A stretch of 63,987 bases of DNA, counting the filler, from Aduncisulcus paluster (lineage: Eukaryota), in NCBI GenBank assembly GCA_024181965.1. It is 10 parts of 10 records of this genome, joined end to end, with 100 filler letters (N's around TTAATTAATTAA, not from the genome) between each part and the next. Parts side by side here need not be neighbours in the genome. Positions count along the whole stretch, not along the records: positions 34,208 to 47,826 come from BQXS01011388.1; 9 more parts are not named here. One strand, written 5' to 3'. A program made the translations under genes and the position numbers. The notes under the pieces were generated by a model, which saw only the letters and a list, made by a program, of their open reading frames with translations, did not search any database and was not told where the DNA came from. Positions 12,753 to 61,126 of this stretch are shown here, piece by piece (the first letter of the stretch is position 1; every line of letters starts with the position of its first letter).

Positions 12753-12853
12753 CNNNNNNNNNNNNNNNNNNNNNNNNNNNNNNNNNNNNNNNNNNNNTTA
12801 ATTAATTAANNNNNNNNNNNNNNNNNNNNNNNNNNNNNNNNNNNNNNNNNNNN

Positions 12854-16064: not shown

Positions 16065-16438
16065 CTTGCAATGGATTTGCATTGAGAGAACCATCATGCT
16101 TGTCCAAAGAAGAGGAGGAGGAGGGTGGGAGAGATCACGAATCATCTCGTGTTGGGGATCCTTCTCGTGAGAGGAAGTACACAACACTCGGGAGAATAAA
16201 GACATAAAGTCATCTCGACAATGCATCCCGTAGGTCTCGTTTTTCACTTACACTGCATTGGATGAACACTCAGTGTGACAGGCTGTCCGATGAACAACAA
16301 TAAATATCAAATAGTATTCCATGAGAGTCTCATGAGAGNNNNNNNNNNNNNNNNNNNNNNNNNNNNNNNNNNNNNNNNNNNNTTAATTAATTAANNNNNN
16401 NNNNNNNNNNNNNNNNNNNNNNNNNNNNNNNNNNNNNN

Positions 16439-25262: not shown

Positions 25263-26072
25263 TTATTCCTTTGTTTCAAGAGGAAATTGATGGCAAGAAA
25301 CTCCTTTAATCATTCGAGAAAAATGTTCAATGTCAGCATCGACTCCCATTAACTCAACATGAGATGATTTCTTTTCTTGTACAACCGGGATTGAAGATCC
25401 GGAATATCTCCGTTTTTCCACATCCTTATCATCGGTTTTCTCCTCGATAGCATCCTCTTGGATACGTTCATTTTCTTCTTCCTCCTCCTCTTCTTCTTCC
25501 TCTTCTTCAAGATCCCTTCTTCTTCTTCTTCTTCTTCGTCAAGATCAATATCTTCTCCTTCTTCATCATCTTCCTGCGATTTGTATTTAAGCAACATTTC
25601 TTTGGACTTTGTAGACACGGCAGTAATTAATCCAGCTTTCCAAATTAGATGTTCTTTTTCTATTTCTTCAGTAAACCCATCGGAATCTACCTGTACAATT
25701 TTTTCAAGGTAAAAACATGTTACCATGATTAACGTTACGCCCAAGAGAGATGATCTCGGAATTTTTGAAATAGATGGCCCGGGAAATGTCAGCGAAAACT
25801 TGCTTTTCCCTTTTAGAATTGCCACAAATTGATCATCGCCAAGAGGTTGGTCAAACTTATCAGAGGATGCTGCTCCAACATAATATGCTCTAAAACATAA
25901 CACTATACAAAAAATAATTAAAATAATTTTGAATTTGAGATTCTTCAACAGTGAATGGAAGGTACATACAATTCTTTGATGTCTTTTTTGACGCAGTAGT
26001 AATGTTAAGAATAATATTATCTGATAATTTTGAAACTGGATTTTCGACTTTAATATCCTTGATAACAACCAT
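25263..26072 (-). CDS. ASF1: Histone chaperone ASF1-like; intron 25903-25969; apparent 1-nt frameshift near 25514-25516
   Basis: Exon 1 MVVIKDIKVENPVSKLSDNIILNIT, intron GTATGT...TATAG. Exon 2 AYYVGAASSDKFDQ...GKSKFSLTFPGP...IP...LLGVTLIMVTCFY matches ASF1 YVGSAESEEYDQ...GVTVVLITCTY. The final segment DIEHFSRMIKGVSCHQFPLE is in a shifted frame ending at TAA 25263. Confidence 0.8.
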
Positions 26073-26536
26073 AACCCTCAAAAAGCCAAATTACAAAAAA
26101 AATCCTGATAGTGAAACAAAAAATCAAGCGTAAGATATATTTCTCAAATAATACTTCAACTACAGGACATTAAGTTTATTTAATCAAGCCGAAATAATCT
26201 CTACGAGAGTGAAGGATAGAAATCGGTACGAACAAGCATTAACCATGGAAGAATCCAGAATGCTCTTTGTATTCAATGTTCCAATGAATTTCAGTATAGT
26301 ATAGTTGAATAAATCGAACCTGAAACATCATATTATTTCATCATCGAGAATAACAGGATCCAAAGAAAACGCAATCAAAACATCCTATCAAGAACGGAAC
26401 CAAGACTAGAACGAGAATTCACAGAATAAATGGGTTTTCATCGGTAAATGCATCTCAACTGCCAGTTGAATACCACCACAACCACTGGCCATAGGGGAAA
26501 AAAAATTGGATTCTTGCTCTTGAAGGAGAAATGTTT

Positions 26537-26851: not shown

Positions 26852-27068
26852 TTCTTTAGATTCTGACGAAAACAGTGGATTGAAGTATTTTTAATTATCA
26901 ATGAAGCATAGATGGATAAATGGCCAGAAATCATATAATTCTTGGACAGTCTGTTTAATTTAGTTTATAAATTATGACAGAGAAAGTATCTATATTGAGA
27001 ACGTGTTATTCTTCAAGAAAAATGGGTTTTGAACCAACGACTCTGCATGTCTTCATAAATAATACATA

Positions 27069-29454
27069 ATGGAAAAGAAAAGAAAGAAAAATAATAGAAG
27101 AAAAACTCAGAAGAAAGATATAAAACCGTCAATTCCTAAATTTCAAACCAAGAGGATATTGGTGAATGAAACATTCCAGAAATGTTCATGTTTTTTTTGT
27201 AAAAACGTTTTTGTTCCCGGAGATGAGGCTAGATGTATTACTATCCCAATTTCAATATGTCAAAATGAATTGATGAGCTCTGAGCAGCGTGAAATGGTTT
27301 GCTCTGCTGAAAAGGATCGTAGAAAAGCTCGGCCCATTGAATTAGATGAGACATGTGTATCGTTTTATTCTTGTTTACATCATTCCAATCGGTTTTTTGA
27401 TCATAGGATCGATGGGAAGGTTATTCCCTTTAATTTGCCACCTAAGATGGAAGAATTGATGAAAAAAACATATATTCAGAGTAATTTAATGAATTATAAT
27501 ATTTTTTCCTCTTATTTACTCGATTTCATTGAAGATATGACCCGAAAAGATAAAGTTCTTCCCCAAACTGCATCTTTATTCTCTTTACTGCCACCATTTT
27601 TTATTAAAAATCGCTCAGTATTTAGGAAATTAAAAGCTCAAGAGAAGGAATGGATGGTTTTAAAATTTTCTCCATTTTTCTCAATTTGTGAGATGGAAGA
27701 AACTTTGAATAGTTCTGACATTTCTGATATTAGTGAAAAACTTGCTTCTTTGGCGCCAAAAGCCAAGGTACGTGCGTCCAAGAAGAAATCGGGCACCAAA
27801 CCCACACTCCCTCCCCCATTGCCGTTCGATCCTTCCCCATGTACCTTTGATTCTCTTCTTGTTTCACGGTCTCCGTCTGTGATTGTGTATTCGTCAGAGG
27901 AGACTCATACTCAGTGTTTTGCCCAATGTGTATGCAGATATGTTGGAACAGGCCTTGAGAGGTCGTGGAAAACAAAGGATGATATGCTTGTTGTGTCTTC
28001 CTCTTCTTCGTCTGCATCCATAAGCACCTCTGAAGAAGGAACACGAGTACTGAATGAAATGGATGGATCATTGGGCAGGATTGATATTAAGACAGGTCTT
28101 GATGCTTCACAAAAGCCAATATTATCTTTGCTTCCCAAGACATTGGATACTCTCAAGCCCCTTACTATGACGTATCTCCTTGCACCTTGTCCCTCTCCTT
28201 CCTATATCTGGGATCGAGAGTCCATGTCATTGTTCCTTGTGCTTGTCGTTGATGAAGAGAGAGCACGGGAAACATGGAAAATCAACAAATTGGTTGCCCT
28301 CAGAGATAAGATTGCAGACAAACTGCGACAAGCCAGGAGAGAAGGTAGAGATCTGAGTGAAGCTGATGAAATCCTCGGGGACTTACTCCATGAAGAAGAC
28401 GAGTCTGTATTCTGTGAGACATTCTGCAATTCCCTTGGACCTCTCTTTGATGGATTCATCCTTGATATCACCTTGTCATATGTTAGTCCTGAAAACCCTG
28501 TAAAGCTTACCGCAGAGGACATTCAGCTTGCAAAGTCAGAAGCGAAGTTTATGGTAGAATCCGAGACCGATACGAATGGAAACGTGCCTCAGGGCGTTGA
28601 GAAAGATGATTCTTCCGGTATAGTACAGTATAATACAGTTCAATCAGGAAAGGACAAGGGCGAGGTGAAAGAAGAGGACATAGATGAAGAAGATAAGATG
28701 AAAGAAGAAGAGGAGGAGCAAGAGAAAGCTGGACCTTCTTTAGTCAATCAACTAATCCTTGCATCACATTTCCCGACTCCAGCCATCTCCTCTGCTCTGT
28801 GTGCATGCGTGTGTGTATGGGAACGGGATAGGGGAGAACGCAGACGTCTAAATGGGGAGAGGAAAGTTGTGCGGGGAAGGTGGGAGATGAAGAAATTGAT
28901 TGTAGGGGGAGAAGAGGTGAAGAGGCGAAAACGGCGAACGAAAAAAGAATTGGAAGCAGAAAAAGAGAAGAAGGATGAGAAGAAAAAAGAAGAGGAAAGG
29001 AAGAAAAAGAAAGAGGAAGAAGAACAAAAGAGAAAGGAAGAAGAAGAGCAAAAGAGAAAGGAGGAAAGCCAAAGAAGAAGAAGCACTAGAGTCAAGGAAA
29101 ACGCCTTGGTTATGCCTGAAGAAAATACAGAGGAGGAAGAAGAAGAAGAAGAGGAGGAGGAGGAATCAACAACGACTGTCCTAAGTACCCATTCTCAAAC
29201 TCTTCCTTTAACTCAAGATTCAGGAGCGTCAATCCATTCTTTGCGGCGTAAATCCACGCCTAATAGTCGTAAGAGAGATGATAACCCACGAGAAGAGGAA
29301 GATGAGGAAGAGAAGAAGAAGCGAGGGCGTCGTAAAACTCCAGCCTCTCACACTCTCTATATTCCTCCTCTTCTTGCCTTTTCTGATCGTATTTCTTTCT
29401 GTTCATCCGATCAAAAGTGCATGTGTGTAAGATCTTGTGAGAGCGGCGTGTGTG
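27069..29454 (+). CDS. Hypothetical protein with Cys/His motifs and a K/E-rich coiled coil, 3'-truncated
   Basis: Long open frame running to the linker. CSCFFC and CLHH near the N-terminus, CSSDQKCMCVRSCESGVC at the break. Confidence 0.7.
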
Positions 29455-29555
29455 NNNNNNNNNNNNNNNNNNNNNNNNNNNNNNNNNNNNNNNNNNNNTT
29501 AATTAATTAANNNNNNNNNNNNNNNNNNNNNNNNNNNNNNNNNNNNNNNNNNNNA

Positions 29556-30959
29556 AAAAGAGAAGAAGAGAGAGAAGAAAGAGAGAGAGAAGAAAGAGAG
29601 AGAGAGGAAAAAGAGAGAGACATTCAACACGAAGGAGATTCCGATTCTATTTATAGAAATCAGTGTAGACAACTTAGTGAACGCGAAGAAGCCATACGAA
29701 AGAGAGAACAAGAACTCCAGCGTGAGAAAGATGAGCTGATGCGTAAAAGTGTAATGATTGACACTGTCGAAAAAGCTTGGAAAGAAGAGAAGCAACGAGA
29801 GAAAAAATCTGAAGAAGAAACTCAAAAGAAAATACTTGAAAAGGCCAAGGAATTATCAAGACTCGAAATACAATCCATGACTAAACATTCTCCTCATTTT
29901 CACCCTTCTTCCTCTTCTTCCTCTTCCTCTTCTTCCTCTTCCTCTTCCTCCTCCTCTCCGCAATCTATTTCTCCCTCTGCTTCTTACAAGATTAGTTACT
30001 TTGACAGGTTACTTTCCTCTGAAACTCTTGAGGATTACCAGGCAGTTGAGAAAGCTTTCATCAATGATCAGGCTTCTTCTCTTCCATCTTCCTCCATCAA
30101 TGCTTCCTCTCCTTCTTTTGGGTGTCTCTTAGAGAGTCTACAAGAATCGAGAGATGACATCTTTTCACTGATAGGCGATGGATTTGTTCGTGCTGTCCCA
30201 TCTCGAAGCCAACGTCTTTCCTCATCTTCCTCTTCCTCTTCCTCTTCCTCTTCCTCTTCCTCTTCCTCCTTTTCCAAGCAGAGATATGAGTCTGAGAGAA
30301 GAGAAGAAGATGCAAGTCCATTGATAGTGAGATCTCCTCGTGAATATCCTGTGGATAATCGTCTATGGCGTAGAATGGCTGAAGATGACTACTATCCCAC
30401 GTCAAGAAGACAAGGAGAGGAGCGTGACGATGGCCTTTCTGATGATCTTGAAGTCAACGTAACAGTCAGTGTGAGCAGGGAGTTACCGACAGGGAGTCAT
30501 GAGGAAGAAGGATATGCTAGGAGGAGTGGGGATATCTCTCGTGGTGTAAAAAGGAGAGAAACAGCCACCATTGTCACCTCCAAGACACCTCAATACACCA
30601 AAAAGGAGCTGGTATACACAACGTCTCCTTATTCCTCCCATTTTCATGAAAATCAGATGAAAGAATCACATGATAGATATGAGACGATAATAGGACCTCG
30701 GTATGATGCTTCCAAGGAGTATATGCGCCAGTCTCGTGATTCGTGGGCTGGAAATGACCATCAGAAACACCCTTCTGCTTCTTCTTCTTCCTCTTCAAGA
30801 ACACATCACTCACATACTATCCTTGACGATGAAGATGTTCCAATTCAATCAGTCAGCGATGGTCCTCGTATTATTGACGATGACGGTGGACCAGCGAGTC
30901 TATTACGGAGTAGATTAGTATACATGTATGATAGTTCGCGAGGAGAATATGTATCGTAG
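29556..30959 (+). CDS. Hypothetical coiled-coil/Ser-rich protein, 5'-truncated
   Basis: Frame stays open upstream of the 29739 ATG toward the linker (QCRQLSEREEAIRKREQELQREKDEL). Poly-Ser tracts. Confidence 0.7.
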   Translation, partial: KREEEREEREREEREREEKERDIQHEGDSDSIYRNQCRQLSEREEAIRKREQELQREKDELMRKSVMIDTVEKAWKEEKQREKKSEEETQKKILEKAKELSRLEIQSMTKHSPHFHPSSSSSSSSSSSSSSSSSPQSISPSASYKISYFDRLLSSETLEDYQAVEKAFINDQASSLPSSSINASSPSFGCLLESLQESRDDIFSLIGDGFVRAVPSRSQRLSSSSSSSSSSSSSSSSSFSKQRYESERREEDASPLIVRSPREYPVDNRLWRRMAEDDYYPTSRRQGEERDDGLSDDLEVNVTVSVSRELPTGSHEEEGYARRSGDISRGVKRRETATIVTSKTPQYTKKELVYTTSPYSSHFHENQMKESHDRYETIIGPRYDASKEYMRQSRDSWAGNDHQKHPSASSSSSSRTHHSHTILDDEDVPIQSVSDGPRIIDDDGGPASLLRSRLVYMYDSSRGEYVS

Positions 30960-34107: not shown

Positions 34108-34207
34108 NNNNNNNNNNNNNNNNNNNNNNNNNNNNNNNNNNNNNNNNNNNNTTAATTAATTAANNNNNNNNNNNNNNNNNNNNNNNNNNNNNNNNNNNNN
34201 NNNNNNN

Positions 34208-35354
34208 ACTCACGGTGAAGAGCAGCATGATGTGATTCTTGTGCTTGCTCATGATGTGGAACCAATGGAGATGTGTGTAGAGGAGATGGATGTAGAGGAG
34301 ATGTATGTAGAGGAGAGGTGTGTTGAGAGTGGGAAGAATGAGAGGATTGTGATGCAAGGGGAGGACTTTTGGATGCAGAATATTGCTGTTGTTTCATAAT
34401 ATAATTCTTCTGGAAAGATAGAGACACAGGCGTGGGGAGAGAAGGCGTTGAGAAAGAAGAAGAGGGGGGAGAAGAATGGGAAGAGGTGGAATGGGAAGAG
34501 GTGGAATGGGAAGAAGTGGAATGGAGAGAATGAGGAGAATGGAGAGAAGGAGAAGGTGACAAGGGAGGAGAAGTCTGAGTCCAATGAGAAGACACAGTAG
34601 TTTCTGCAGGGATTAAAGTTTGAGTTGAAGAAGAGATAGAAGCTTGAGGAGGTAATGTTTGGGTAGAAGAGGAGCAAAAGGGCTTTGGAGGAGGAGATTT
34701 TAGGAGAGAAGCTTCCTTTTCATCCTCATAAGTTTTCAGAAGGGAAGAAAGGAAATGATAACTTTCTGTTAAATTTAATGGATAAATTGGGAATGAGATT
34801 ATAGATACAGGGCCAAAGCCACTCAAATCTTCAATAAAAAACTCCAAGTAACTTGAGTCATAAGATCGATCAGTCTTTGGGAGTACGATTGAGGAATGCG
34901 GGGATAAGGATGAAAAATGAAGGGATTTATGCATTGATGAGGCCAGAGGGGATTGGAGAGCATCCAAATCCTCTTCGACCAAAACAGTGTCTTCATCGTC
35001 AGTTGTGCAAAGAGTAGCTGGAGATGGAATAGACGAGGATATGTCATGTTGGGGAATAGAATTAAGAAATAGAACGATTAAACCTTCTTTTTTATATGTT
35101 TTATCGATGAGATCACATATCTTGGAAGGAAATTCTGAAAAACTGAAGCTAATATTGGTATAATTAGAAGCCGTTATTGTATTATGATAAAGAAAGGGAT
35201 TCTGAGTATCTATTGATTGGATTGAGAGAGAGAGGGAGTCTAACTGACCATCTCCTCCCATGATGGGTTTCATTCTAATTGATGCCCATAATGTCGAAGG
35301 AAATGCCGGGGATTCCCTCTTTCTAACAATAATTCTTACCTTTTTAGCAATCAT
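34208..35354 (-). CDS. SAS-6 N-terminal head-domain protein (SAS-6-like), 3'-truncated
   Basis: DTQNPFLYHNTIT...FSEFPSKICDLIDKT and LEFFIEDLSGFGPVSIISFPIYPLNLTESYHFLSSLLK align with SAS-6 DDTDPFFLYNLVIS...FLAFPQKFIDLLQQC and [36 protein letters not shown]. Confidence 0.65.
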
Positions 35355-35520
35355 TTGCGAGAAAGAGCGAAACAAATAGTTGAAAGAGAATCTTTCTATT
35401 ATTATTATAAATATATTGAAATAGATAACTATTATAACATTTTATTTAAGAATAATGATGTTATTATCAATTTATTTCCCACAATCGAAGATTGATAATT
35501 TTTCCCGTGTATTCGTTACA

Positions 35521-36382
35521 ATGAGCTATTTAAAGAAAAGGTATGAATATAAATTTTGTGATTTGTTTTTTTAAGATTATCTTACATTGTATAAAATCTC
35601 TCATACCACACAGATGTACGATTTTGGAACAAGGGGTGACTGGAGGAAGATGTCTCTCTGTGAAATATCCAACAGCCCCTCAAGTCCCTTATCCTTGGGA
35701 TCCTAAACCCTCAAGCAAGTCTCAAAAGTGTTATAGGGATATATTTTCATCTGGTTTCAAACGACATGATAATACTCTTTTCCATTCCCTTTCTATGGCT
35801 CCAATTGAGGCATTTGAAGAAGTGGAAGATACAGATGTCAAGATAGATGATGAATTCAGACTTCACTTCGATACTACTCATATTCAAGAAGATCCCCACC
35901 TCACTGATGTTCAAAAGAAATATTACGTCATGTGGAATGTTTTTATCTCATCTTTGCCCGTAAAACCAGCAAATGTTCACATGTATGACGTATTTAGGCA
36001 TTTTATTCGACAGACCTTTCGTGAATTTGGTCCTGAAAACCGAATTTTGTTTGCTTTCCATCTACATTCGTTCGCTCTTCAGAAAGTTTTGAGCGCTAAT
36101 CATATAAAAGTTCTTCTTTATGAACTTGACACTCTCTTTTCAAAAGACAAGATAAAATCCGACGCTACGCATCATCACACCAAAATAGCGATATATCCAA
36201 GCTCGGAAATGTCTAAAGAAGAAAATAGGAAGGTATTCTCTGAATATCACGATAAATTATCCTCGATGGAGAAAGAGAGAGATGAAATGAGAAAGAGTCA
36301 TTGGGGAGATAGAGTCAGAATGGGAGAAGTGATGAGTGACGGTGGGTTACGAGGGATTCATGTGAAGATGGATGGAAAATAG
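35521..36382 (+). CDS. SUZ12: VEFS-box protein (PRC2 SUZ12/EMF2/VRN2 family); join(35521..35540,35614..36382)
   Basis: HDNTLFHSLSMAPI...EDTDVKIDDEF...IQEDPHLTDVQKKYYVMWNVFI...FRHFI...FAFHLHSFALQKVLSANHI matches VEFS (HNRLYFHS...DSEDE.D...[22 protein letters not shown]...FMLHL). Phase-2 intron 35541-35613, GTATGA...ACACAG. Confidence 0.75.
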
Positions 36383-36394
36383 AAGATAATCTAA

Positions 36395-37249
36395 GGAAAT
36401 ATCGACGTCTTACAGGCAGAGAAGAAGGAGAGACGAGGATCTCTCGCTTCACAGGGTTCTTATCGGAATGTTCGACTCCACCATAAAGATGTTTCAAAGG
36501 TTGCTCTTCCTTCCATTGCTAGATGCATTCAGATACAACGTGAATGTGTGTTCAATGGATGCACATTCCACTTTTGTGGGCTTCGATCAAGGCTTCGAGT
36601 GCATGAACTTCAATATTATGAATCTATCGTTGTTGCTAAACTATTTGGTGCTCAAATCATGTATTCGACTGTAGAACAAGACTATTTGAAGAGAAGGAAA
36701 GCCCATCTACTGCACCAGAATGAAGAAGAGAAGAAGCGATTCTTGTCCAATCCACTCCCTTTTTGTCATGATTCAATTAAACACAAGCGTGCTGATGGTG
36801 ATCTTGAGGAATCGAGTGAGAGTGGAGAGTCTGAGGAGGAAGAGGATAGTCATGGTCGATATGCAGGCAGAGAAGAAGAGAAGGATTGCAATACGAAGGA
36901 ATTTGAAAGTGGCTCAAAGGATTATTGTTATGCTCAGATGGAGAAGTACAACATCACGGAAGATGATGCATTTATTGGACGTATTGGGAAAGAGTGCACA
37001 CATGTCATTGCAGAGAATATGAATGGGTTAAGAGAAGCAAGGGATTTGTTTACAACGTTAGAAACAAATGGGAATAGTCGAGTGTTTAATATTAATTATC
37101 TTGTTTTTATTGAAAAGGGAGTTACTTTGAGTCAGATCCGTAGCAATCAGATGACCCCTCATTCAATCTCAGCTTCATGGGATAACAATAAACAAGATGA
37201 ATACAAAACACCCACCAATAGTTTCCACGCTGCTTGTTCTTGTTTTTGA
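36395..37249 (+). CDS. BRCT-domain ORF (FCP1-type BRCT) with no ATG before the domain
   Basis: QRECVFNGCTFHFCG...AKLFGAQI...CTHVIA...RVFNINYL. Frame is open from 36395 and is the same frame as the upstream VEFS ORF. Confidence 0.6.
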   Translation, partial: GNIDVLQAEKKERRGSLASQGSYRNVRLHHKDVSKVALPSIARCIQIQRECVFNGCTFHFCGLRSRLRVHELQYYESIVVAKLFGAQIMYSTVEQDYLKRRKAHLLHQNEEEKKRFLSNPLPFCHDSIKHKRADGDLEESSESGESEEEEDSHGRYAGREEEKDCNTKEFESGSKDYCYAQMEKYNITEDDAFIGRIGKECTHVIAENMNGLREARDLFTTLETNGNSRVFNINYLVFIEKGVTLSQIRSNQMTPHSISASWDNNKQDEYKTPTNSFHAACSCF

Positions 37250-40200
37250 AGGAGTTCTTCCCTTTCCTCCCCTTTCATGGCACTCTCTGGCTCATCTGTC
37301 ACCATTCTTGTTTCTTGAATTTCTGATGGGCTTGGTGTCACATCATCTTCCTTTTTCTTCTCTTCTTTTTCTTGAGAAACCAAACGACTACCACTAGTAT
37401 TGTCGACAACACTGACAAAACTATTCAGAATCAAGCGAATTATTCTCATCCTTTTGCCAATTTCAATCGAATTATTCAAATCATTTTGTAATGTCTCACC
37501 AATTTTCTCTTTTGGGCATACAATGTCTTTTTCAAGCTCTCCACAAAGGTAAGTAAGACGAGAAATACTCACCCGAAGGTTTGAATCCAAATCCTCTTCC
37601 TTTTTATACCGTTTAAGACGTTGTTTCAAGGCTTCACTGCTCATCTTGACAATTGTTGACTCTAAGAGTTGAATAAAGGAGAGAATTGTCGGATTAATTA
37701 CATGTGATGTGTCTTCTGTTCTCTTTTTCATAAATTGCTCTTTCAAATCTGTCTTTGTTCGTATCAATTCTGACTCACAAAGACTGAGTCTCCTTCTCAA
37801 TTTCAGATATAGTTGTGATATCTTGGCACAGGTTTCATTAGATGTTTGAGAACAATCAATCGTCATATCATTATCACCATCCATAGCAGAGGAAGAAGAA
37901 GAAGAGGAAGGATTCCGAATAATGCTTTGACGTAAGGCAAGTTCAAGAGCACGATTTCTTCTGATTAACTTGGCGTTTTCTTTACCTATTGAATATAATG
38001 CCTGGCGATGTTTTGAAGATGTGATAGATGCGACTCCAAGCATCGAATCCACCTTTTTCTTAGCTTCTTGGGCCTTCCTTGATAGTTCTTCAAGATTGGC
38101 ATAATCCCTTCGCATTTCACTTACCTTAGCTTCCATCTCATCCATCACAGCCTTCAAACTCGATATTTCTTCATCCTTGAGTTTGATTGTATGTTCAGAC
38201 TCAGACAGACGCTCCATGGTATCTTGTGAATGTGAATGAAGAGAACTAAGAGAATCCTCTGAAATCTCAAGCTTTTTAGATAAATTGGAAAGTTTAGCTT
38301 CATATTCTTGTGTTAAGACTATAACGGAATGCGCATGATCTGATTCCATACCTTGTTTAATACTTTGAAGAGTTTTTAAGTCACAACAACTCTGGCAATG
38401 TTGAGATTTTAGCTCAGAATGTTCTTTCTCAAGGATTGAGTACTCGGAACTCAGTGAAGAATGGCAATCTTTCAATGAGATCAGTTCAAGACGTTGAGAT
38501 TCATATTTTTTCTGGAGGTTCGTCAACTCGATATTAAAAGTTTCTTTAGCTCTTTTCTCTTCATCGAGTTGCCGTTTGGTCCTTTCGAATTGTTCTTTGA
38601 GTTTTTCTTTGTCTCTTCTTTCATCTTCGGCTAGTTTCTTGGCTCTTTTCTTCTGTCTGTTCTCTTGTTCTTTTAAAGATATCTCTTTCTGTTTCTCAGA
38701 TCTCTCATATGAGAGTTTCTCAGTCACAGAATCTAAANNNNNNNNNNNNNNNNNNNNTCTCAAGGATTGAGTACTCGGAACTCAGTGAAGAATGGCAATC
38801 TTTCAATGAGATCAGTTCAAGACGTTGAGATTCATATTTTTTCTGGAGGTTCGTCAACTCGATATTAAAAGTTTCTTTAGCTCTTTTCTCTTCATCGAGT
38901 TGCCGTTTGGTCCTTTCGAATTGTTCTTTGAGTTTTTCTTTGTCTCTTCTTTCATCTTCGGCTAGTTTCTTGGCTCTTTTCTTCTGTCTGATCTCTTGTT
39001 CTTTTAAAGATATCTCTTTCTGTTTCTCAGATCTCTCATATGAGAGTTTCTCAGTCACAGAATCTAAATTAGATTGCAGTGAGAAACTTTCCTTCTCACT
39101 CTTTGATATGAGATTCGATAAACGAGTCTTTAAAATACTCACTTCAGCCTGAACTGTCTCTAATTCCTCAGAATGATTCTCAATGAGTCTATTTTTATCC
39201 TTTTTATGTTGAGAAACTAATAATTTTATCCTATCTTCAGCTAAAGTGATGCCGTGGGTCTTGGATTCGATAATGGAGTTGAGTTTTTTAGATTCTTCGA
39301 TAAATTCCCTCTCTTGGTCTTTCCAGGAAGACATCTCTCTGCAATGTTTGGACTCTTCAACACGACATTTTTCCTCAAATTCTTTAAGTTTTTCAACGAA
39401 TCTTTTTTCGCTCTGTTCATTTTCCTCCTTGAGTTTCTTTTCTTCCGACTTAAATTGGTATTTCTGTGTTTCAAGATCGTTTGTCAATTCTTTAATCCTT
39501 TTGTCTTTCTCTTTTAATTCAGATTGTATTGAATGGCATTTCCCATCAAGGGATTCAATTTCTTCTCTCAATTGTGCACAATCATCCTTACAAGTCTTCA
39601 ATTTCATAGAACTAATTGTGATTTCCTCCCGTAGATTTGATACTTTTTCTTGTAATTCGTTCCTGACCTTTGTAATGGCTTCCTGATGCTGCAAAGAAAG
39701 AGAAGAAGAGAGAGAGGAAAGAGAAGAAGAGAGCACTGCTGAATGCTCAGATTGAGCATGTTTCATGTCTTCCCTGCTCTTCAAAAGCTCAGATTGTGTC
39801 GACTTTAATTCAGTACTAATCGAAGCGTAATCTGCTTCTAATTCCCTCAGTTTATCCTCAAGTTTGGACTTATTCTCTTTCTCAGCAATGTACATGGACT
39901 CAAATCTTCTCAATTTCTGAACTATTTCCTGAGTTTTGTCTAAATCAGTCATCAAAGAAACAATACGACTTTCAGATATTTTCTTATCACTCTTACATTG
40001 GGTTAAATGACTTTCACTTACTGAATATTGTTCCCTTAATGTGTCAAGAGTCGTCTGCAATTCGGAACAGCGAGATTCAATTTCTATACGAGTAGTCTCA
40101 GAGATTTGTAACAGTCCTTGGCATTCAACGAGACGATTGTTGAGTGTTTGTGCTTCCTCCTCTTTTCCTTTGAGAATTATATTGATTTGATCAATTTTTT

Positions 40201-43200
40201 TCTCTAATTCAACACCCTTTTTGCTCGATTCGTCAAATTTACACAATATAGTGTCAAATTCTTCTTCCTTTGAGTATAAATCTTGCTTAAGAACTTCAAT
40301 GCGACTATCTTTGGAGGAGTTGTCAGTCCGAAGATCTAATATTGACTGTTTCAAGAGTTTTATAGAACTCAACATCTGCAGTGTTTGGTTATCACGAAGA
40401 GAAAGAGATGTTCCTTGTTCCTCTTTATGCTCTTCTTTCCCTTCCATTGAAGCTTTAACAATACTATCACCACTATCACTACCACCATTCTCACTTCCTT
40501 GTAATATTTGGAACAATTTCATTCTTCTATTGACTTTATCTTGCATTCCTTTCCGAATTGTATCTTTTCTATACACAGATAAACTGTCATCCACATCACT
40601 ACCACTGTCACTGCCACTACAAGCATCAATATCGGTTGTAATACTTGAGTCTGTTCTAAAAATAGAAGATCTATTATTAGATACCCAAGATACGAGCACA
40701 CCGATATCACATTCCAGTTCAGATATACAATTTAATAGCATTTTAACTCTATTATTTGCATCCTTCAAATCAATAGCTTCTTCAGACACAGAAAATGGCA
40801 GATGAGAGGAAAGCAAGGAAGTTGCTCCACACATAGTGCCAAGTGTGGTCTTTGATGTCATAGTTGTTGAAGGAGAATAAGTTGAACAAGGAGAATGAAG
40901 AGAGTCCAAAGAAGGAAGAGGAGGAGTCATGGGTTCTTGTGCTTCTTCTCTCTCTTCTCCTCCACCATCTTCTTCCATTCCAACGTCTTGTATTGAAGTT
41001 AAATCCTTTGAGGCTGCATGAGTCTTCTCAAAAGGTAAGATAAGATGGGTGAAAGCAGACAATGGGAGCTCAGAGAGAGAAAGAGAAGGGAAAGGAACAG
41101 ACATGCCAACATAATGTTGCTCTTCACGCCTCTTGGATTCCTTGGCCCGCTTTTCTTTCTCTTTCAACTGACTCTTGCACAAATCTAACTCAGATAGAGC
41201 ACTTTGGAGCTGACCCTTGAGATCTGAATAATCATCCGAAAGATTCTCAAGATCTAATTCGGTATGCTCAAGCTTGGACTCCTGTTCCTTATATTTCACC
41301 ATAAGATCCTCATAGTTAGCTTCACTCTCTTGTAAGTCCACGGAAAGATCATTCACAACTGCCTCAAGCTCAAGGATATGACTTTCAACATCAATCATCA
41401 TCTCTGCTTCTTCTCCTTCTTGAGCTTCTCCTTCTTCTTGTGCTTCCTCCTCCTCTCTTCCTCTTTCTTCTTCTTCTTGCAAGCTTGAATTCAACATGAC
41501 TTGAGATTGAATAGATCCACTTACTTGATATTGCTCGAGTTGAATGGTAAGTTCGGACACTACAGCCTCAAGCTCAGCAATTTGAGCATCACGGAGGTCA
41601 ACAATTTCCTGTGTATTGTTTTCATACACCCTTTTCTCTTCGAAAAATCTCTCCTCTTTCTCTTCAAACTCTTGTACACGATCTCTAAGAGTCACTATCT
41701 GATCTTCAAGTTCTTCATTGACTCGTTCACACTCTTCCACTATTCCACACAACTCTTTCCTTCGCTCTTCACCTTCCCTAGAGGCCTCTTTCTCAACAAC
41801 AAGCTTCCACTGGAGTTCCTGAAGACGTTCTCGCATAGATGCACTCTCTTTTATAAGGTGAGCATGGAATACAGTCGTGAGACCATGGGAAAGAGTTGGA
41901 GAGAATGACGGGAAAGGGTGATGGTGCGTTTGATTTTCAGTCAGATCGGATTCAGTTCCTGGTACAGGGGGGGACATCGATGTACCAGCATTTGTCACGA
42001 TCATTGTTCTTTGTGCAACAGACTTAGTACTGATATCATACTTCTTGGCTTTGGTCAGGATTCCATGGAGACCTGTCTGTGTGCTTGAAGAAGTCCGAAT
42101 GCACGCATTGTTATTTCTACCTTTCGTCTGTTTGGTCTCAATCTTTCCAATCTCCTTCTCCTTGCCTTTCTCTTCTTCTTCCTCTTCTTCCTTTTCTCCA
42201 TCATCTTCTTGGTCTTTTGTCAATTGGTTCTTTTTCACAGTGCTTGGTNNNNNNNNNNNNNNNNNNNNTTCCATGGAGACCTGTCTGTGTGCTTGAAGAA
42301 GTCCGAATGCACGCATTGTTATTTCTACCTTTCGTCTGTTTGGTCTCAATCTTTCCAATCTCCTTCTCCTTGCCTTTCTCTTCTTCTTCCTCTTCTTCCT
42401 TTTCTCCATCATCTTCTTGGTCTTTTGTCAATTGGTTCTTTTTCACAGTGCTTGGTGTTGTATCCTTTCTGAGACGACTCGATTGGACAACAGCAGGCGT
42501 ACCAAGCGTCCCTACTATACGTGAATCAAACCCAGAATGCCCAGACATTGACTGAGAATGGTCACCACATCCTCCTGAGCTCACGAAAGGAGAATATCTC
42601 CTTCCAACTGTTGTAGTAGGACTCAATGATACTCCACTGTTGTGTTCTCTCACACGAAGTCCCATAGATGATCTATGGTGAGATGCTGGAATAGCTACAC
42701 CGGTGGTACCAGGAATAATATTACTACTAGAGGTAACGAGAGGAGTGTTAGAGACAACCTGAGAGAGATGGGAGAGGGAGAGAGGATGTGGAGACAACTC
42801 AGAAATATCCTCAATCTCAAAAATATCCTCCTCTTCTTCTTCTTCTTCTTCATCATCATCATCGACTTCTTCTCTTCCTTCCTTTCCTTCCCTCTCTTCC
42901 TTACCCTCTGCTTTATCTGTCCTTTCATGTGACCCTATTGATTGAGACTCTGCATCAGTAAATGTCTCATTGGAAGTATTAGGAATAGTATTATCTAATG
43001 TACTATCTTGACGGTCACTCAGTACACTTTTCCCTTTCTCCTCAATACATCTCTTCACCATGTCATGAATGTCGGCTTCTTTCTTGCCCATTTGCACTCC
43101 CATTTCAAGCATGGCAGCCAGGGTATCTGATTCACTGAGTAAACCACGAGATAAAAGGTCCAAAAGAGACAATAAACTTAAGGAAGGTGATTCTGGAACA

Positions 43201-45581
43201 TTATCATAATCAACAAGGGTTATAGCATTCTTCGATTGTGAATCATACTCTTCGTTCAGAACAATTCCACGAGACGATGTCATAATAGGGCTTGGAGTCG
43301 GTTCAACAGCCATACCACTCCGAATAACAATGGCATTCACATCACCATGTTTCTCTCCTTCCTCTCCCTCTCCCTCCTCTACTTCCTCTACTTCCTCTAC
43401 TTCCTCTCCCTCCATAATCTCTTTCATGTGATCTCCAAGAAGACTTGGGATGGACCATCTCATGAAATCTCTCACAACCTGACCTGCTTTAACTGTCACA
43501 TGAGATGGTTTGTGTACAGAGGTTGTTGTAGAGTCCTTTCCAGTCGCTCCATAAAGAGATGGCTGCCTTTGCATTGCTCTTTCATCCCTCTCTGCGGCTA
43601 GACTTGCCTCAAGCTCAAGTTGTGCCTTAGACACTCTTCCAATGACACTTCCATACAGACAATCACCCCAAGCAACAATATGAGTGCAATAACTATTAGA
43701 TTCCTCGTCAACCGTGCAAGACACAATGGAAGATGGCGGTGAAAAGTCTTCGTAGAGATCATAGCACTCAAGAGAACCATCAACTCGACCCACAAATAGG
43801 AAATGACCAACACTAAGCAAGCAACGAACACCTCGCTTGGCTGGTATAGTATGTGAACTGTGTGTAACTACGTGAGAACGAGAAGAATGATCTGCTTGCT
43901 GAACATCTACTTTACACTGCACAATACTCGAGTCAGCAGTAATGCCAGAGATAGCTGATAGATCATGAGAGTCAGCAGTATCATCATGCATATCGTCACC
44001 ATGCACATGTGATATTGAAGGAATGTCCAATTCAGCTTCTCTCTTGACTCCATCACACGACCAGACAATACATCCACTCTCAACTTCAAATACACTCACC
44101 GAACCATCTTTGTGACCCATGCAGACACACAGACTAAGATTGGAAGGAACGGAATCGATCGGAATGGAGCCAGATGCCTGCGAACGGTCAGTGTCAGAGA
44201 AAGATTCAGAATGTGTAGTGTCTCGTGAAATAGAATACATTCCAGTCGTTGAAGTGGGCGATACAGCTGAAAGAACACTCGACTGAAACATAGAATGACC
44301 ATCTCCAGAGATCTCTCCAAGATCCCCAGGAGGAACGTCATCCTCGTCACCTCGATACATGGGGTTTGCATCGTCATACCCATCAATATTGAGCTCTAAC
44401 TCACATAAGGCAAGCATAGATGTTGGTTTATCGCATATACACACGCCTTTACCACGGCTGATTGATCCTTGCCACATAAACACTCCTTGTTCACCACAGG
44501 CGTATATATGTCCGTTCTCAAGCATCATAATAGAAGTAATGGCAGTTGAAGAAGAGCGTTTGGCCGATTTGGATGGTTTGGTGTCAGAGCTGCAATGTGA
44601 TTGGCCCCCNNNNNNNNNNNNNNNNNNNNGGTTTATCGCATATACACACGCCTTTACCACGGCTGATTGATCCTTGCCACATAAACACTCCTTGTTCACC
44701 ACAGGCGTATATATGTCCGTTCTCAAGCATCATAATAGAAGTAATGGCAGTTGAAGAAGAGCGTTTGGCCGATTTGGATGGTTTGGTGTCAGAGCTGCAA
44801 TGTGATTGGCCCCCTTTCTTGGAAGAGACTGGAAGGACCGTGAGAAGATTGGGCCTACTAATTGCCTTTAAACTGGTTGCAGAACAAGTGCATCGCCGTA
44901 TAGATCCATCAGAACAACCAATAAGAACACTCTTATGTTGAGTACTGCCACAAATAGAAGTGATCTCAAGCTTTTTTTCTTTTGAGCGCTTAGAGTTGGT
45001 GGATCTCCTTCCCACATGCCTTGGGGCAACTATCGAAGCGGAAGAAGAGGAGTGAATAGAAAATATCTTTATAACAAATGGAATAACTGGTGATTTACCA
45101 GTTTCAGTAGGGCTTGGCCGTTCTTCGTCACTATAGCTTTCTCCAGCTTCTGTTTCGGTATCAGTGATTGGTTCCAAATCCTTAAATCCCCAACATACAC
45201 AAGTACCTTCTTTATCAACCGTCCATAAACGGCCCATTCCATCTTGGGTCATACATGTAATGGGAGACGTATGTGGTGTCTTTTTTTGCTCGCAAATAAT
45301 ATCTAGAGATGTTGAATCGACAATAGCAAACCCTGCAGAGGCAAGACCAAGTACTAGGCAATCAGAACAAAAACATAACGAACTTGTTGGAATACCCAAT
45401 AGTGAAGGATACTAAAATGTAATAAATTGTTAATATTATTTAAAATTATGCAATTGCATTTCGGAAAATAAGGGAAATTCACGTGATAAGATAGGAATAT
45501 GGGAAAATAAGTATTCGTTCAAAATAATGCTTGATTTGTGCACAAAATACATACATCAATTAATTGTTCATCCGATTCCAT
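37159..45581 (-). CDS. Large WD40 plus long coiled-coil protein; intron 45412-45554; split by three 20-N gaps
   Basis: Exon 1 MESDEQLID|GTATGT...TTTTAG|YPSLLG. WD repeats (HTSPITCM...LWTVDKEGTCVCW, LIGCSDGSIR, GHKDGSVSVFE, VGRVDGSLECYD). The four ORF pieces overlap through the duplicated gap flanks. Confidence 0.75.
38427..39068. repeat. Gap-flanking duplication 38427-38737 ~ 38758-39068
   Basis: One T/A difference (38660 vs 38991; QENRQ vs QEIRQ). Confidence 0.9.
42061..42456. repeat. Gap-flanking duplication 42061-42248 = 42269-42456
   Basis: Copies flank a 20-N gap. Confidence 0.9.
44425..44814. repeat. Gap-flanking duplication 44425-44609 = 44630-44814
   Basis: Copies flank a 20-N gap. 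Confidence 0.9.
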
Positions 45582-46208
45582 CAAGTAAAATGATGTGGTT
45601 ATTTACCACAATGTCAAGGATACAAAGTGAAACACAAGAAACTTAAAGGGGCATAAAATTTAATGACAAATATTAAATATTGAATAAATTAGAATATGAT
45701 TGACAATGCATTTTTTTTATTCATTCAGTTTCTAATACAAGACGAGATAATTAAGACCTTGTTTGAGACCACCGATCACAGGAAGAAAAACATTCATAAT
45801 TAACAATTTAAGTCTGCAATTACATTTATGCCGATACTTTAAAGATTTGAAAAGGCGACTCTCCTCTGAGAGATCATTTTNNNNNNNNNNNNNNNNNNNN
45901 CGATTCCATCAAGTAAAATGATGTGGTTATTTACCACAATGTCAAGGATACAAAGTGAAACACAAGAAACTTAAAGGGGCATAAAATTTAATGACAAATA
46001 TTAAATATTGAATAAATTAGAATATGATTGACAATGCATTTTTTTTATTCATTCAGTTTCTAATACAAGACGAGATAATTAAGACCTTGTCTGAGACCAC
46101 CGATCACAGGAAGAAAAACATTCATAATTAACAATTTAAGTCTGCAATTACATTTATGCCGATACTTTAAAGATTTGAAAAGGCGACTCTCCTCTGAGAG
46201 ATCATTTT
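45573..46208. repeat. Gap-flanking duplication 45573-45880 ~ 45901-46208
   Basis: One T/C difference (45763 vs 46091). Confidence 0.9.
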
Positions 46209-47384
46209 CGACTTAGATCCTATACTATCTTACAAGTAGTATGAAATATTTATATGTCTTTATCAAAGATAATCCGGCGAAAGGACAGATATACAGATAG
46301 AGTATGAGAAGAAACGTAAAATCAGAGATTATAATTAATAAAACCTCTATGTCTACATTCAATGTCTACTTCGAAGTTGTAACTAATCTACAAATTCTTT
46401 TTTTAAAAAAAGATCACACAGAAGACATGGAAAACACGACAAACAATAAAGAAACAGACGAAATTGATGAAATTGATGAATCGACCAAAATAACCAAAAC
46501 AACCAAAATAAATAAGGTTGATGGGGACGAAAATGGGGAAAGAAATGGTGGAAAATATATGGTAAGATAATGTTCAAAGCTATGATAATACAAGAAACGT
46601 CGCGGCGACCCATATTGCCAATGACTCGGTCGTTTTGATGTTCTCAAGGGTGAATACGACAGAGGATTGGTCAAATGGCCGGGATATAATTGACATACAA
46701 TAAAATAAACGGTCTTTGTGTGTCCAGGAAAGAACGAAAGGAGACAAAATCGAAAAACAAAAATGGTCGATCCATTTCATTTCATTTTGGACCCATTCCC
46801 GACCTCCCATGTCCGAATGTTTTATGCTACTAACCATAACTATGTAAAATGATTGCCTTGGGTGTGTTTTCCAAGAAGAGATTTCTCGATATTAGTATAT
46901 AACCTTCCAGAACTTCCGATAGTCGCTACAACTTCCATTACTCCCTAAGTTGTCAACATGATGTCCATATATCCATTTATTATGATTTATATAAACGTGA
47001 TTAGTTGCCGATTTTATCATTCTCTTAAAGACTTTGTCTCTGTAGAAAATTGAATCCGATTCGAAATTCGAATCTTCAAAACATGGTTGTTTGGGGATCT
47101 AAATGCCCCATTATCTGGGCTATTGTAACGATGGTCAAATCGATTTCAAGAAGTGGATTGCCACAAAATACAAAATTATTCCTGCCTGAAATCGAAGAGA
47201 AAATATCAATCTGAAACAGAATTAAATTATAAGACGAAAAATTAATATTATATATAAAACATGAACCATTGAATTGAGCCAAGAATGAGATAAACACTTG
47301 AGGGAAGTATTTATAATAATTTCTCTTGAGCAACAAATGGATTTGTTTTGCAAAATTTGTTTTGACACAATTAAAATCATTAAA

Positions 47385-47826
47385 ATGTTTAAAACAAATA
47401 ATTTTAATCCCCCTTGGTCCAGAACTATTGCTGGTTATAATAATTCCAGCCATTCTAAGACCAAGTTGAGATTCACTTCTGCTTGCCTCAGCCCCATTGC
47501 TTCCCTGCACATTATTTGGGTATTATTCGCCATTATGCTTGTCCTTCCCATTTATGGTTCCTCTGATGTCATTCCAGATTCTTTCCTCCTGAATGACGTC
47601 TGCCTTGCCCTTGACCATGGAGCTCATTGTGACGACCTGACTTCTGACGACCTCCAAGATCTGACCTCCCTGAACACGTACTTTGTTGACTCCTTCGCTG
47701 GGCTTGGTGGTGCGACGAACCTCACGACGCTGTATGTGAGCAACACGGACTCTGTGTCCAAACAGATGGGCACCAGTGACATCGAGCAGCTTCCCACGAG
47801 TCTTGAGACGCTGACGCTGAATAACA
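47385..47826 (+). CDS. Internalin-like LRR surface protein, N-terminal fragment (start could be 47337)
   Basis: Signal-like IIWVLFAIMLVLPIYGS, cap IPDSFLLNDVCLAL, LTSDDLQDLTSL...FAGLGGATNLTTLYV, LPTSLETLTLNN. Confidence 0.7.
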
Positions 47827-47926
47827 NNNNNNNNNNNNNNNNNNNNNNNNNNNNNNNNNNNNNNNNNNNNTTAATTAATTAANNNNNNNNNNNNNNNNNN
47901 NNNNNNNNNNNNNNNNNNNNNNNNNN

Positions 47927-51930: not shown

Positions 51931-52031
51931 TNNNNNNNNNNNNNNNNNNNNNNNNNNNNNNNNNNNNNNNNNNNNTTAATTAATTAANNNNNNNNNNNNN
52001 NNNNNNNNNNNNNNNNNNNNNNNNNNNNNNN

Positions 52032-54483
52032 CAAATACTCTATCAAATGCAGTCCGAATAACCCTAGAAACGGATCCTCTGAGCAAGGTAAGAACACGGA
52101 AGATACGTTCATCAACTCGAATAACGCCCCCTTCCTCGTACTTCCGAACAGGATGGAGTGCTGGATCTTTGCCCAACGAATAAATGAATAGAGGCATGTT
52201 GGAAAGGGAGGAGGGAAGATGAAGAGAAACACGGTCTGGTTGTACCTTGACTTCCTTTCTATAACAAACGAGAGGGGTTAAAATATTACGACCAAATGCA
52301 TCTCGAATGGAACGTAGAGTTACATATGGAACTTTCGCCACGGCCGTTTTCACTGCAGATGCAACAAATGCATTGCAATTGACTGTTTTAAATAATCTAG
52401 CCAGTTCAACAATGGAAAAAGCCATGTTACTGACTCTAACTCTTCTTGAACCATCCCTGTGAGTGTACAGGCAGGCAGCCTGAACAAAAGAGAACCCACC
52501 ACTATCACCAGCACTGCCACCAGCCAGTCTTGCCTCATCCCAGGCCAAATGGGCCTCAACACTACTCTCGTTGTCACACAGACACCCGTGTACTTGCTCA
52601 ATGGAAGGAAGGAAAGGCTTGTCACTGATACATCCAGAGTATTTCTGAATGCTCAATCCCTTTGAACATCTGAGTCGAAGGGAACAAGCGATTGCCTGTT
52701 CTTTCGTAAGAATATTGGAAATGACACTCTTCAAGTACAGCAAAGGATGTGGAAGAAGAGGAGATCCCCTCTCGATATCATAAACAGAGAGGGGATCATT
52801 ACATGGAGTCAGGACAGGGGTTAGATGCATCTCTCCGCCTGTCTTGCGGACAAGTTCGAAGAAAGAAGGTAGTGACAAGGGCTTTGGTTCGGAATACTCA
52901 AGCCTAAGCTCTGTCTGAGGGTGGGACACAACGTGGGTTGGATCTGACTTCTTTACAAGCGTTCTATCCGAGGGCGAGGAAGAGGAGAACACAGTCGGAG
53001 AGTCAGGTGCATAATGTTTGAACGTGCCGATCGAGATGTCAGTGGATGAAGTAGTTGTCGTGGATGATGTGGCCTGTTGTTCATGTTTCGATTGGGTGTC
53101 AGGAGAAGAAGCGTGATGAGAGAAATCGGTTGAAGAAGGAGAGGAAGCAGTGATATCACCAGCAGCAGGGTAGCCAGAGCCAGAAGTCGATTTCTGCTTT
53201 GACACATTCCGAACAGGTGCTCCAATGACATCAAAGGCAATGTTATTCTCAACAAATAGAGACGATAGAGACTTGAAATAGTCAGTTCCACCACACAACA
53301 GTAGCATCTCTTTCTCTCCTCCATACTCGCTAAGAGAGTCAATATCGGCCGCATTTCCACTGCCTACGTTAGGACGATTGCTAATGAAACACGTCACTCG
53401 CCCACCAATACCACACAATACGGAGAGAGAGAAAGATATGGCGTAGGATAAACAGAACGGTTGATAAACACTTGAGGCAAGCAAGGTTGGAGAGAATGGC
53501 GAAGGACGTGCATCTGAAGATCCAGAACGAACACGTTTCATGAAGTGTTGTTTGACAGTATCCCTTTCTTCTCTTTCTTGGATTACTCTTCCAGGAAGGC
53601 TTCTGAAGAAGTCAATAGTGCTATCTTTGTCATGAACAGAAAGAGACATGTATTCAAGGGGAAGAGGAGCGAAAGGAACTTCATCATCGACACATACGAT
53701 AACTTCAGCAGCGATGATGACACCTCCTTCCTCTGCAACCGAACTTCTGTCAAAAGAGAACACCCGAACACGATCATCACACAGAACAGGGAGGATACGA
53801 ACATTCGTTGGGATAGTTTCACTTTCAATTGCATCAATAATACCCAAACATATAGCATTTACAGAACCACCACTAACGGCAAGAGGAGTAGTATCAATGA
53901 TTAAAAGGTGGACAAATGGGAGAATATCGTACGAAGAGAGAGGTTGAGCTGTCATTTCCATTAGCTCTTGCTTTTCTTGAAGAGGTTTGACTTGTTGGGG
54001 AGGATATTCTTCAAAAGGACCAGTAGGTAAATATTTCTTATCTTTAACAATATATTCAACGGTATTTTGTGTTAACATGGGTACTCCATCTTGTCTGGCT
54101 GGGTTGACCTGACCTCTAGCTGTATCAAGATATTGCATAATATATTGAGGCAAAGCAGTCTCAATTCCACAAAGTTTACAAGTATATTTATGGCCTCCAG
54201 GGTGAATATAGACATTTGGATTCAAATAAGCTCCACAACGACGACATCTAATGGGATCTGCCGTCCCAACATCAATTATGGGAACAGATTGATCTAGAGA
54301 AGGTTGCTTTATAAATGGAGAATAATGAATACTCATGGGAATCCCAGTTTTCTCACAGAGTTCCGCTCTTGACGGGATGGAATTTATGGTAGCAGTTAGA
54401 AAACTATCCTTGGGAAGACCCTCTGAAAAAGTGGGATGAGGATTTGTTTTAGGTGGAAATCTCCCTCCAGTTGATTCGTTCAT
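52032..54483 (-). CDS. SEC24: COPII cargo adaptor Sec24, 3'-truncated
   Basis: TINSIP...GIPMSIHYSPF, zinc finger PIRCRRCGAYLNP...YTCKLC, trunk LIIDTT and GGRVTCF...PNVGSG, LRLRCSKGL, VQAACLYTHRDGSRRVRV. Confidence 0.92.
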
Positions 54484-54807
54484 TATTAGGAAACCCAGAA
54501 CGAGAAAAAACGAGATGAAATCACCCCACCGTTAAATCAGAATAAAATCACTTCCAAAATTTATTAAAAGTTTCCCGATGAAATATTAATATGTTTTGCT
54601 TTAATTAATTAGAAAAATAAATAGTAATTGACAATTTACATGCAGATTAGCAGACCAGAGAGAGAAACGATTGATGATAAAATTCGAAAATTTATTTTTC
54701 ATCAATCCATTGATATTGTATCATTCACCTGCTGGGCAAAACATAAACTAAATGTTTCGAGTCCAGAGAGAGTGTTTTCTATGTTTTCTCGCGTGTCATT
54801 AGCAAAG

Positions 54808-57408: not shown

Positions 57409-57508
57409 NNNNNNNNNNNNNNNNNNNNNNNNNNNNNNNNNNNNNNNNNNNNTTAATTAATTAANNNNNNNNNNNNNNNNNNNNNNNNNNNNNNNNNNNN
57501 NNNNNNNN

Positions 57509-60500: not shown

Positions 60501-61025
60501 AATCATCTGAAGATATTGAGAAAGTTCAAATCCCATTTATGTGGCAGGCACAAATGCGTCACTATCTTATTGAGCCTTCCAAATGTGTGAATTATAATGA
60601 AAAAGAATTCGAGGTCAAGGAATGGAAGAAAGTTCCCGGGTCACAATCGTTGTTCGATCACATTGAAGTCACCAACGCCACTGTCCATGACTATCCAATT
60701 GTGGCTGTGAGAGTGGCTGATACAGAATTCACTTATGGTTATGAATGGTGGGGTTCTGCTGATAGATTGGTTCAAACCCCACTGACTGATAAATGTTTCC
60801 TTATTTTGACTCAAGCACTGGCTCAAAGAAAAGGAGGATCACCGGCTGGACCGGCTGGAACAGGTAAGACTGAATCTGTGAAGATGCTTGCCCAACACCT
60901 CGGAAGACTCTGTCAGGTTGTTTGTTGTGATGAGAATTTCGACGCCAACGCTGTGTCTCGAACTCTGAGTGGGCTCTGTGCTTGTGGAGCCTTTGGATGT
61001 TATGATGAATTCAATCGTTTGGATG
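57509..61025 (+). CDS. DYNC1H1: Cytoplasmic dynein heavy chain (probably dynein-1), linker region plus start of AAA1; both ends truncated
   Basis: AQGEFALERF, MKNSPYYAEF, WAEVQRRW, FFFVGDEDLLEMLG, YGYEW, RLVQTPLTDKC, Walker A GPAGTGKTESVK, GCYDEFNRL. Confidence 0.88.
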
Positions 61026-61126
61026 NNNNNNNNNNNNNNNNNNNNNNNNNNNNNNNNNNNNNNNNNNNNTTAATTAATTAANNNNNNNNNNNNNNNNNNN
61101 NNNNNNNNNNNNNNNNNNNNNNNNNC

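Follow-up and report, generated by a model that had tools for sequence, protein, structure and literature searches.

A small, diverged SUZ12-type VEFS-box protein predicted in the free-living fornicate Aduncisulcus paluster

The locus, its source and its exon–intron structure

The stretch of DNA analyzed here (the window; 63,987 nt) consists of about ten contigs joined by spacers, each spacer being a pair of 44-N runs lying 12 bases apart. The subject of this study, a candidate VEFS-box gene on the plus strand, occupies its own piece at window positions 34208–47826 (13,619 nt, BQXS01011388.1), and because the window is a concatenation of contigs, only genes on that piece are its true neighbours. 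Abutting ORF pairs across spacers (e.g. 27063–29510 and 29511–30959) are artefacts of joining. The locus and the spacers are laid out as follows.

34209–35354, minus strand: divergent neighbour of the VEFS gene, encoding a low-complexity protein rich in Ser, Pro and His in which SHS/TSPLH-type units recur; no Pfam family was matched
35521–35540, plus strand: exon 1, 20 nt (ATG plus 17 nt), encoding MSYLKK and the first two bases of R
35541–35613, plus strand: intron 1, 73 nt, GTATGA...CATACCACACAG, ending in a fused branch/acceptor motif of metamonad type
35614–36382, plus strand: exon 2, 769 nt, with TAG at 36380–36382 ending the 262-aa reading
35765–36079, plus strand: putative VEFS box, Pfam PF09733, residues 51–155 of the 255-residue exon-2 translation
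36342–36419, plus strand: 78-nt in-frame segment, GTGGGT...TCTTACAGGCAG, holding TAG 36380 and TAA 36392
36420–36994, plus strand: downstream in-frame ORF (exon 3 of the public model), with coding-like codon usage
4002–4101, 12754–12853, 16339–16438, 29455–29554 and 34108–34207: spacers, N-run pairs
47827–47926, 51932–52031, 57409–57508 and 61026–61125: spacers, N-run pairs

The 255-residue translation of exon 2 is 100% identical to the Aduncisulcus paluster "hypothetical protein ADUPG1_009963" (445 aa, NCBI), a public entry that carries no precomputed Pfam domain. A. paluster is free-living and belongs to the Carpediemonas-like organisms (Metamonada, Fornicata), and this protein identity establishes the metamonad host that the initial annotation had read from the sequence as apparent. 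GC content is ∼0.36–0.43 in bins across the contig that holds the VEFS gene, fitting the genome-wide value of 39.1% (PMC9933649), and neither GC nor the gene content of the window gave any sign of contaminant origin. The database identity aside, that contig has no taxonomically informative gene. The VEFS gene is a genuine nuclear gene of A. paluster.

For the other ORFs of the window, a domain scan covered 32 picked from 65 stretches that are free of N and 120 codons or longer, and assigned the following features, all on other contigs.

3243–4001, minus strand: eIF3c fragment
25352–26077, minus strand: ASF1-like histone chaperone domain (E 7e-10)
52033–54531, minus strand: Sec23/24 fragment
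54747–56414, plus strand: phosphatidylinositol transfer protein fragment
57509–61024, plus strand: dynein heavy chain fragment
63099–63983, plus strand: CEP104-like TOG domain fragment

Going by their domain assignments, the putative dynein heavy chain, Sec23/24, phosphatidylinositol transfer protein, CEP104 TOG and eIF3c fragments confirm a eukaryotic flagellate source. The ASF1-like gene is a second chromatin gene of A. paluster in the window and is unlinked to the VEFS gene. No SET or WD40 domain was found in the 32 scanned ORFs, most of which lie on contigs likewise unlinked to it.

The spliced reading joins 20 and 769 nt into 262 codons plus a stop, and the N-terminus of ADUPG1_009963 is identical to this exon 1/exon 2 junction as we read it. 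A Giardia intron motif, [AC]CT[GA]AC[AC]CACAG, is given beside Trichomonas and Spironucleus versions in PMC3916229, and the last 12 nt of intron 1 match it at 10 of 12 positions. Across the window, 13 of 8109 AG-ending 12-mers score ≥ 10/12, and the intron 1 acceptor is alone among the 13 in having GTATG no more than 100 nt before it (at 73 nt); in two other high-scoring 12-mers the distance is 270 and 284 nt. Codon-usage log-odds for exon 2 are 0.146 in frame versus −0.51 and −0.78 in the other two plus-strand frames, on a scale where the training ORFs gave 0.224 ± 0.094 in frame and −0.50 ± 0.31 off frame. The sole run containing the locus (X1) has no cover over 35311–35698, which takes in exon 1 and intron 1, and the structure there is read from the DNA and the public protein. 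The spliced ORF of about 262 aa described in the initial annotation is thus borne out by the exon/intron reading, with the deposited model running to 445 aa instead.

A diverged VEFS box and little else

On the exon-2 translation, PF09733 was the sole family at E ≤ 10 among 24,736 models (E 1.1e-5, 25.7 bits against a gathering score of 23, profile positions 16–120 of 137), and this E-value already allows for the number of models searched. The match covers 35765–36079, where the initial annotation had placed the box at about 35765–36130, and it stays above the gathering threshold, at 23.2 bits versus 23, when the 445-aa model is used as query. A phmmer search against PDB sequences returned seven hits at E ≤ 10, of which the top five are SUZ12 VEFS chains. 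The best of them, 4w2r_S (E 0.005, bias 0.1), aligns with query residues 44–188, and likeness to solved SUZ12 VEFS chains spans about 35744–36196. The landmarks kept in the alignments to 4w2r_S and 7td5_C are F-H-S, an acidic cluster and W-N, and the helices after the W-N motif are also kept in the alignment to 4w2r_S. With the Pfam score above threshold and SUZ12 in all five top PDB places, the description of the protein as essentially one VEFS box stands for the 262-aa reading.

Searches for relatives of the protein returned little beyond the protein itself. Against 1.84 billion representatives, phmmer found the query and one bacterial match, with no relative. That match, a 2388-aa TSP3-repeat protein (E 8.4e-4), was rejected as spurious: a repeated short motif in it resembles residues 73–110 of the query. 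The motif is ∼35 residues long and ends in Y-F-V-x-W, and repeats of this kind can fake a match. Word-indexed searches yielded the query only at near length and, at longer lengths, none of 592 candidates at E ≤ 10; the ESM Atlas gave no usable match, and a metagenome scan gave 127 pattern matches, 0 of them confirmed. Because no relative was found, the box comes with no alignment, conservation evidence or confident fold.

The single-sequence AlphaFold2 model, made with no alignment, is poor (mean pLDDT 40.1). When this model was submitted to Foldseek, ranks 1–10 were all PRC2 entries, at E-values of only 0.1–0.74 and TM-scores of 0.19–0.39; since Foldseek also scores sequence, this ranking speaks for consistency and is not independent proof of a VEFS fold.

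These data also bear on whether the VEFS match is a false positive, a chance resemblance in an orphan helical, acidic protein. Such a reading would draw on the small Pfam excess (just 2.7 bits on the exon-2 translation and 0.2 bits on the 445-aa model), on the empty homologue searches in every database queried, and on the low-confidence AlphaFold model with its weak Foldseek E-values. It would, however, have to accommodate a Pfam E-value that is corrected for all 24,736 models and a separate PDB search that put SUZ12 in places 1–5 with a bias of 0.1 and landmark motifs over ∼145 residues. A SUZ12-group protein of Carpediemonas membranifera moreover has a like order of motifs, as judged by eye with no alignment tool. 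We therefore regard chance resemblance as very unlikely, and conclude from sequence comparison that the gene very probably encodes a highly diverged VEFS box homologous to that of SUZ12.

Beyond this putative box the protein has little. No zinc-finger family was matched at E ≤ 10 on the exon-2 translation or at E ≤ 1 on the 445-aa model, and at E ≤ 1 neither the 262-aa nor the 445-aa model matched any other Pfam family except a sub-threshold Peptidase_C5. The stretch ahead of the VEFS match is only ∼57 residues long, too short to accommodate the ZnB, WDB1, C2, Zn and WDB2 modules that SUZ12 carries in animals and plants (de Potter 2023, PMC10638273). In agreement, PDB matches to full-length SUZ12 are confined to chain residues 546–704. 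The features of a canonical SUZ12 orthologue, namely the C2H2 finger and the ZnB/WDB1/C2/WDB2 modules, are missing, and their absence, already proposed from the sequence, held for both gene models in the Pfam and PDB comparisons.

The 3′ end of the gene

Comparison of the public protein with the DNA shows that 36342–36419 is treated as an intron in the 445-aa model and retained in the 262-aa reading. ADUPG1_009963 reaches 445 aa because this 78-nt in-frame intron takes out the stop; past 36419, the model continues through a further ORF and then a third intron. The relevant frame contains an ORF at 36395–37249 on the plus strand, which shares the frame of the VEFS ORF and is split off from it by TAG 36380 and TAA 36392. 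It encodes an acidic stretch rich in Ser and Glu and a segment with Cys and His residues, for which no zinc-finger family was matched.

That a downstream ORF should continue in frame raised the possibility of an alternative code in which TAA and TAG are sense codons. This was rejected: long ORFs read in the standard code end in all three stops, and abutting ORF pairs elsewhere are N-spacer artefacts.

Whether the product is the 445-aa public model, or whether the downstream ORF is a separate gene, was weighed against a 262-aa product. For the former stands the public annotation itself, a BRAKER2 model with RNA-seq hints that splices 36342–36419 (PMC9933649). The downstream frame is also coding-like, with a codon-usage log-odds of 0.206 over 36422–36994, and it remains so before its first in-frame ATG at 36659 (0.103 over the 79 codons of 36422–36658). 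Against it, a contig of X1, a run classed as RNA by guess and whose contigs drop minor isoforms, continues unbroken over 35699–36503, that is, with 36342–36419 unspliced and no joint reported. The acceptors that the longer model needs are weak as well: that of intron 2 matches the Giardia motif at 8/12 positions, a score reached by 5% of AG-ending 12-mers, and that of intron 3 at 4/12. Finally, neither Pfam nor PDB yielded a match to the extension, and a protein-database search with the downstream ORF recovered only itself among 640 candidates. On balance we slightly favour 262 aa as the length of the major product, and consider the 445-aa or two-gene alternative possible rather than probable.

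The X1 run has further features at this end of the gene. Its depth steps through 43, 0, 93, 174 and 312 over 4 kb (7-fold differences), and these steps, together with the uncovered divergent promoter, look RNA-like, we infer. X1 contigs leave the locus at 36467 and 37074 and continue for ∼255 letters foreign to the rest of the window; a 30-letter consensus at these loose ends occurs nowhere else in the window, and the ends probably reflect short words common to other loci. Contigs also break, and depth steps from 93 to 174, at about 36504–36521, which could be a second transcript start or, again, short words shared with other loci.

The gene model matters for how the protein is described. If the 445-aa form is the true one, "about 262 aa, essentially one VEFS box" is too modest a description, and the label "minimal" is accordingly uncertain, as it hangs on the choice between 262 and 445 aa at the 3′ end.

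Relation to known SUZ12 proteins and to PRC2 in metamonads

PRC2 is thought to go back to the last eukaryotic common ancestor. Metamonads are nearly blank in two published surveys of the complex: E(z) was recorded in no metamonad and ESC solely in C. membranifera by Sharaf 2022 (PMC9018016), and EZH, EED and SUZ12, which co-occur strongly overall, were each recorded in 1 of 11 metamonads by de Potter 2023 (PMC10638273). The same papers describe VEFS as the part of SUZ12 needed for E(z) binding and stimulation (PMC9018016) and as crucial for the catalytic lobe (PMC10638273).

The closest natural counterpart of the A. paluster protein is CARMEM003039 of C. membranifera, a 233-aa protein under the header OG_SUZ12 in Supplementary Data 8 of de Potter 2023 (PMC10638273). 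Both species are free-living Carpediemonas-like fornicates and both proteins are short (233 versus 262 aa), with CARMEM003039 apparently comprising a short leader and a VEFS box and having no zinc finger or N-terminal SUZ12 modules. By eye only, the two share an order in which a ∼60-residue leader with P-Y-P is followed by [FV]-H-S, next by an acidic run and lastly by Q-K-x-[YF]-x-[VI]-M-W-N-x-F-I. They differ in that CARMEM003039 is too diverged for phmmer to link it to the A. paluster protein at database scale, and in that the A. paluster gene is possibly extended at its 3′ end. In addition, EZH and EED are on record for C. membranifera, whereas A. paluster is known here from the VEFS gene only. 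In the ortholog FASTA archive of de Potter 2023 (PMC10638273), CARMEM006322 stands among WD40 (EED-like) sequences and an EZH-type SET sequence is followed by CARMEM003686, where CARMEM is read as Carpediemonas membranifera and a group header was seen for SUZ12 only.

Human SUZ12 and Drosophila Su(z)12 (PDB 4W2R, 5HYN, 6C23) share with the A. paluster protein the F-H-S motif, the acidic cluster, W-N and the later helices. Human SUZ12 chains are nevertheless 727–739 aa long, and carry ZnB, WDB1, C2, Zn and WDB2 N-terminal to VEFS according to de Potter 2023 (PMC10638273). A closer match in size comes from crystallographic minimal PRC2 (5HYN, 4W2R, 5IJ7), whose SUZ12 chains are VEFS-only pieces of 129–191 aa, although these EZH2–EED–SUZ12 VEFS constructs are engineered truncations. 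Strong divergence of the subunit has precedent in Neurospora, Tetrahymena, C. elegans MES-3 and Cryptococcus Bnd1, examples which show SUZ12, according to both surveys (PMC10638273, PMC9018016), to be the most divergent PRC2 core subunit and one that standard searches often miss. Those proteins differ from ours in having other domains or no detectable VEFS box, and several of them have been placed biochemically in PRC2, whereas the A. paluster protein is known from sequence.

We propose, with a probability of roughly 60%, that the A. paluster protein is a small, highly diverged SUZ12-type protein acting in a PRC2 reduced to its catalytic lobe, E(z)–EED–VEFS. If it works as in the PRC2 complexes characterised so far, the VEFS box would grip the E(z) methyltransferase, and VEFS and EED between them would keep the E(z) SET domain in its active conformation, which makes up the catalytic lobe. 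Docking of RBBP4/7 and of accessory or targeting subunits is the task of N-terminal SUZ12 modules that are absent here, and a natural VEFS-only protein therefore leads us to propose an E(z)–EED–VEFS lobe with no RBBP4/7- and cofactor-docking lobe. The predicted complex would match the EZH2–EED–SUZ12(VEFS) crystal constructs in composition. Such truncated constructs are active in vitro. On this proposal the protein would bind E(z), and A. paluster would possess both E(z) and EED.

A VEFS box is no proof of PRC2, because VEFS-box proteins occur where E(z) seems to be missing, and human, fly and Arabidopsis have extra, non-Su(z)12 VEFS proteins, as recorded in Sharaf 2022 (PMC9018016). A. paluster may have lost E(z), leaving a true VEFS protein that serves another complex or persists as a relic. 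The absence of E(z) from every metamonad of that survey, the NY0171 transcriptome included, and its presence in just one of the 11 metamonads of the other, would fit such a loss. The A. paluster genome announcement (PMC9933649) concerns strain NY0171, which Sharaf 2022 (PMC9018016) lists as "unclassified Carpediemonas" (ids Carplike_NY0171); the survey records one NURF55 for it and no E(z), ESC, Su(z)12 or VEFS protein. These zeros weigh little, however, since the transcriptome contains only 17.7% complete BUSCOs and the VEFS gene was missed too. Loss of E(z) also sits poorly with the strong co-occurrence of EZH, EED and SUZ12 and with the sole fornicate recorded with a SUZ12-group protein having EZH and EED as well (de Potter 2023, PMC10638273); an E(z)-independent function of VEFS is not described in the available text of either survey. 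We consider a VEFS protein outside PRC2 unlikely. Retention of a VEFS-only SUZ12 despite loss of E(z), whether for an E(z)-independent job or with a non-E(z) SET enzyme as partner, we consider slightly less likely again. A catalytic-lobe-only PRC2 with E(z) and EED is the reading we prefer.

The initial annotation had held that a stripped-down SUZ12 in this lineage matters for the distribution of PRC2. The part of this that stands is the addition of a SUZ12-type protein in a second fornicate lineage; its weight was overstated, as VEFS-only metamonad proteins had already been published, among them three "Pfam_VEFS-Box"-only entries for C. membranifera in Table S8 of Sharaf 2022 (PMC9018016). 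Known before this work are VEFS-only SUZ12-like proteins in Metamonada and a full EZH–EED–SUZ12 core in one Carpediemonas-like organism. New is the A. paluster VEFS gene, which is unannotated publicly and was scored as missing by the only survey to cover the strain. We found no literature report of it, and neither "Aduncisulcus" nor "ADUPAL" appears in eight supplementary files of de Potter 2023, a set that excludes the species table (Supplementary Data 1).

The gain is thus incremental: SUZ12 is added to a second fornicate lineage, and no new kind of system is described. The "hypothetical protein" ADUPG1_009963 can now receive a functional annotation. Because a second fornicate lineage has a SUZ12-type VEFS protein, our analysis suggests that the stripped-down SUZ12 is older than the split of the Carpediemonas-like organisms, and A. 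paluster offers a second place in which a catalytic-lobe-only PRC2 could be tested in vivo.
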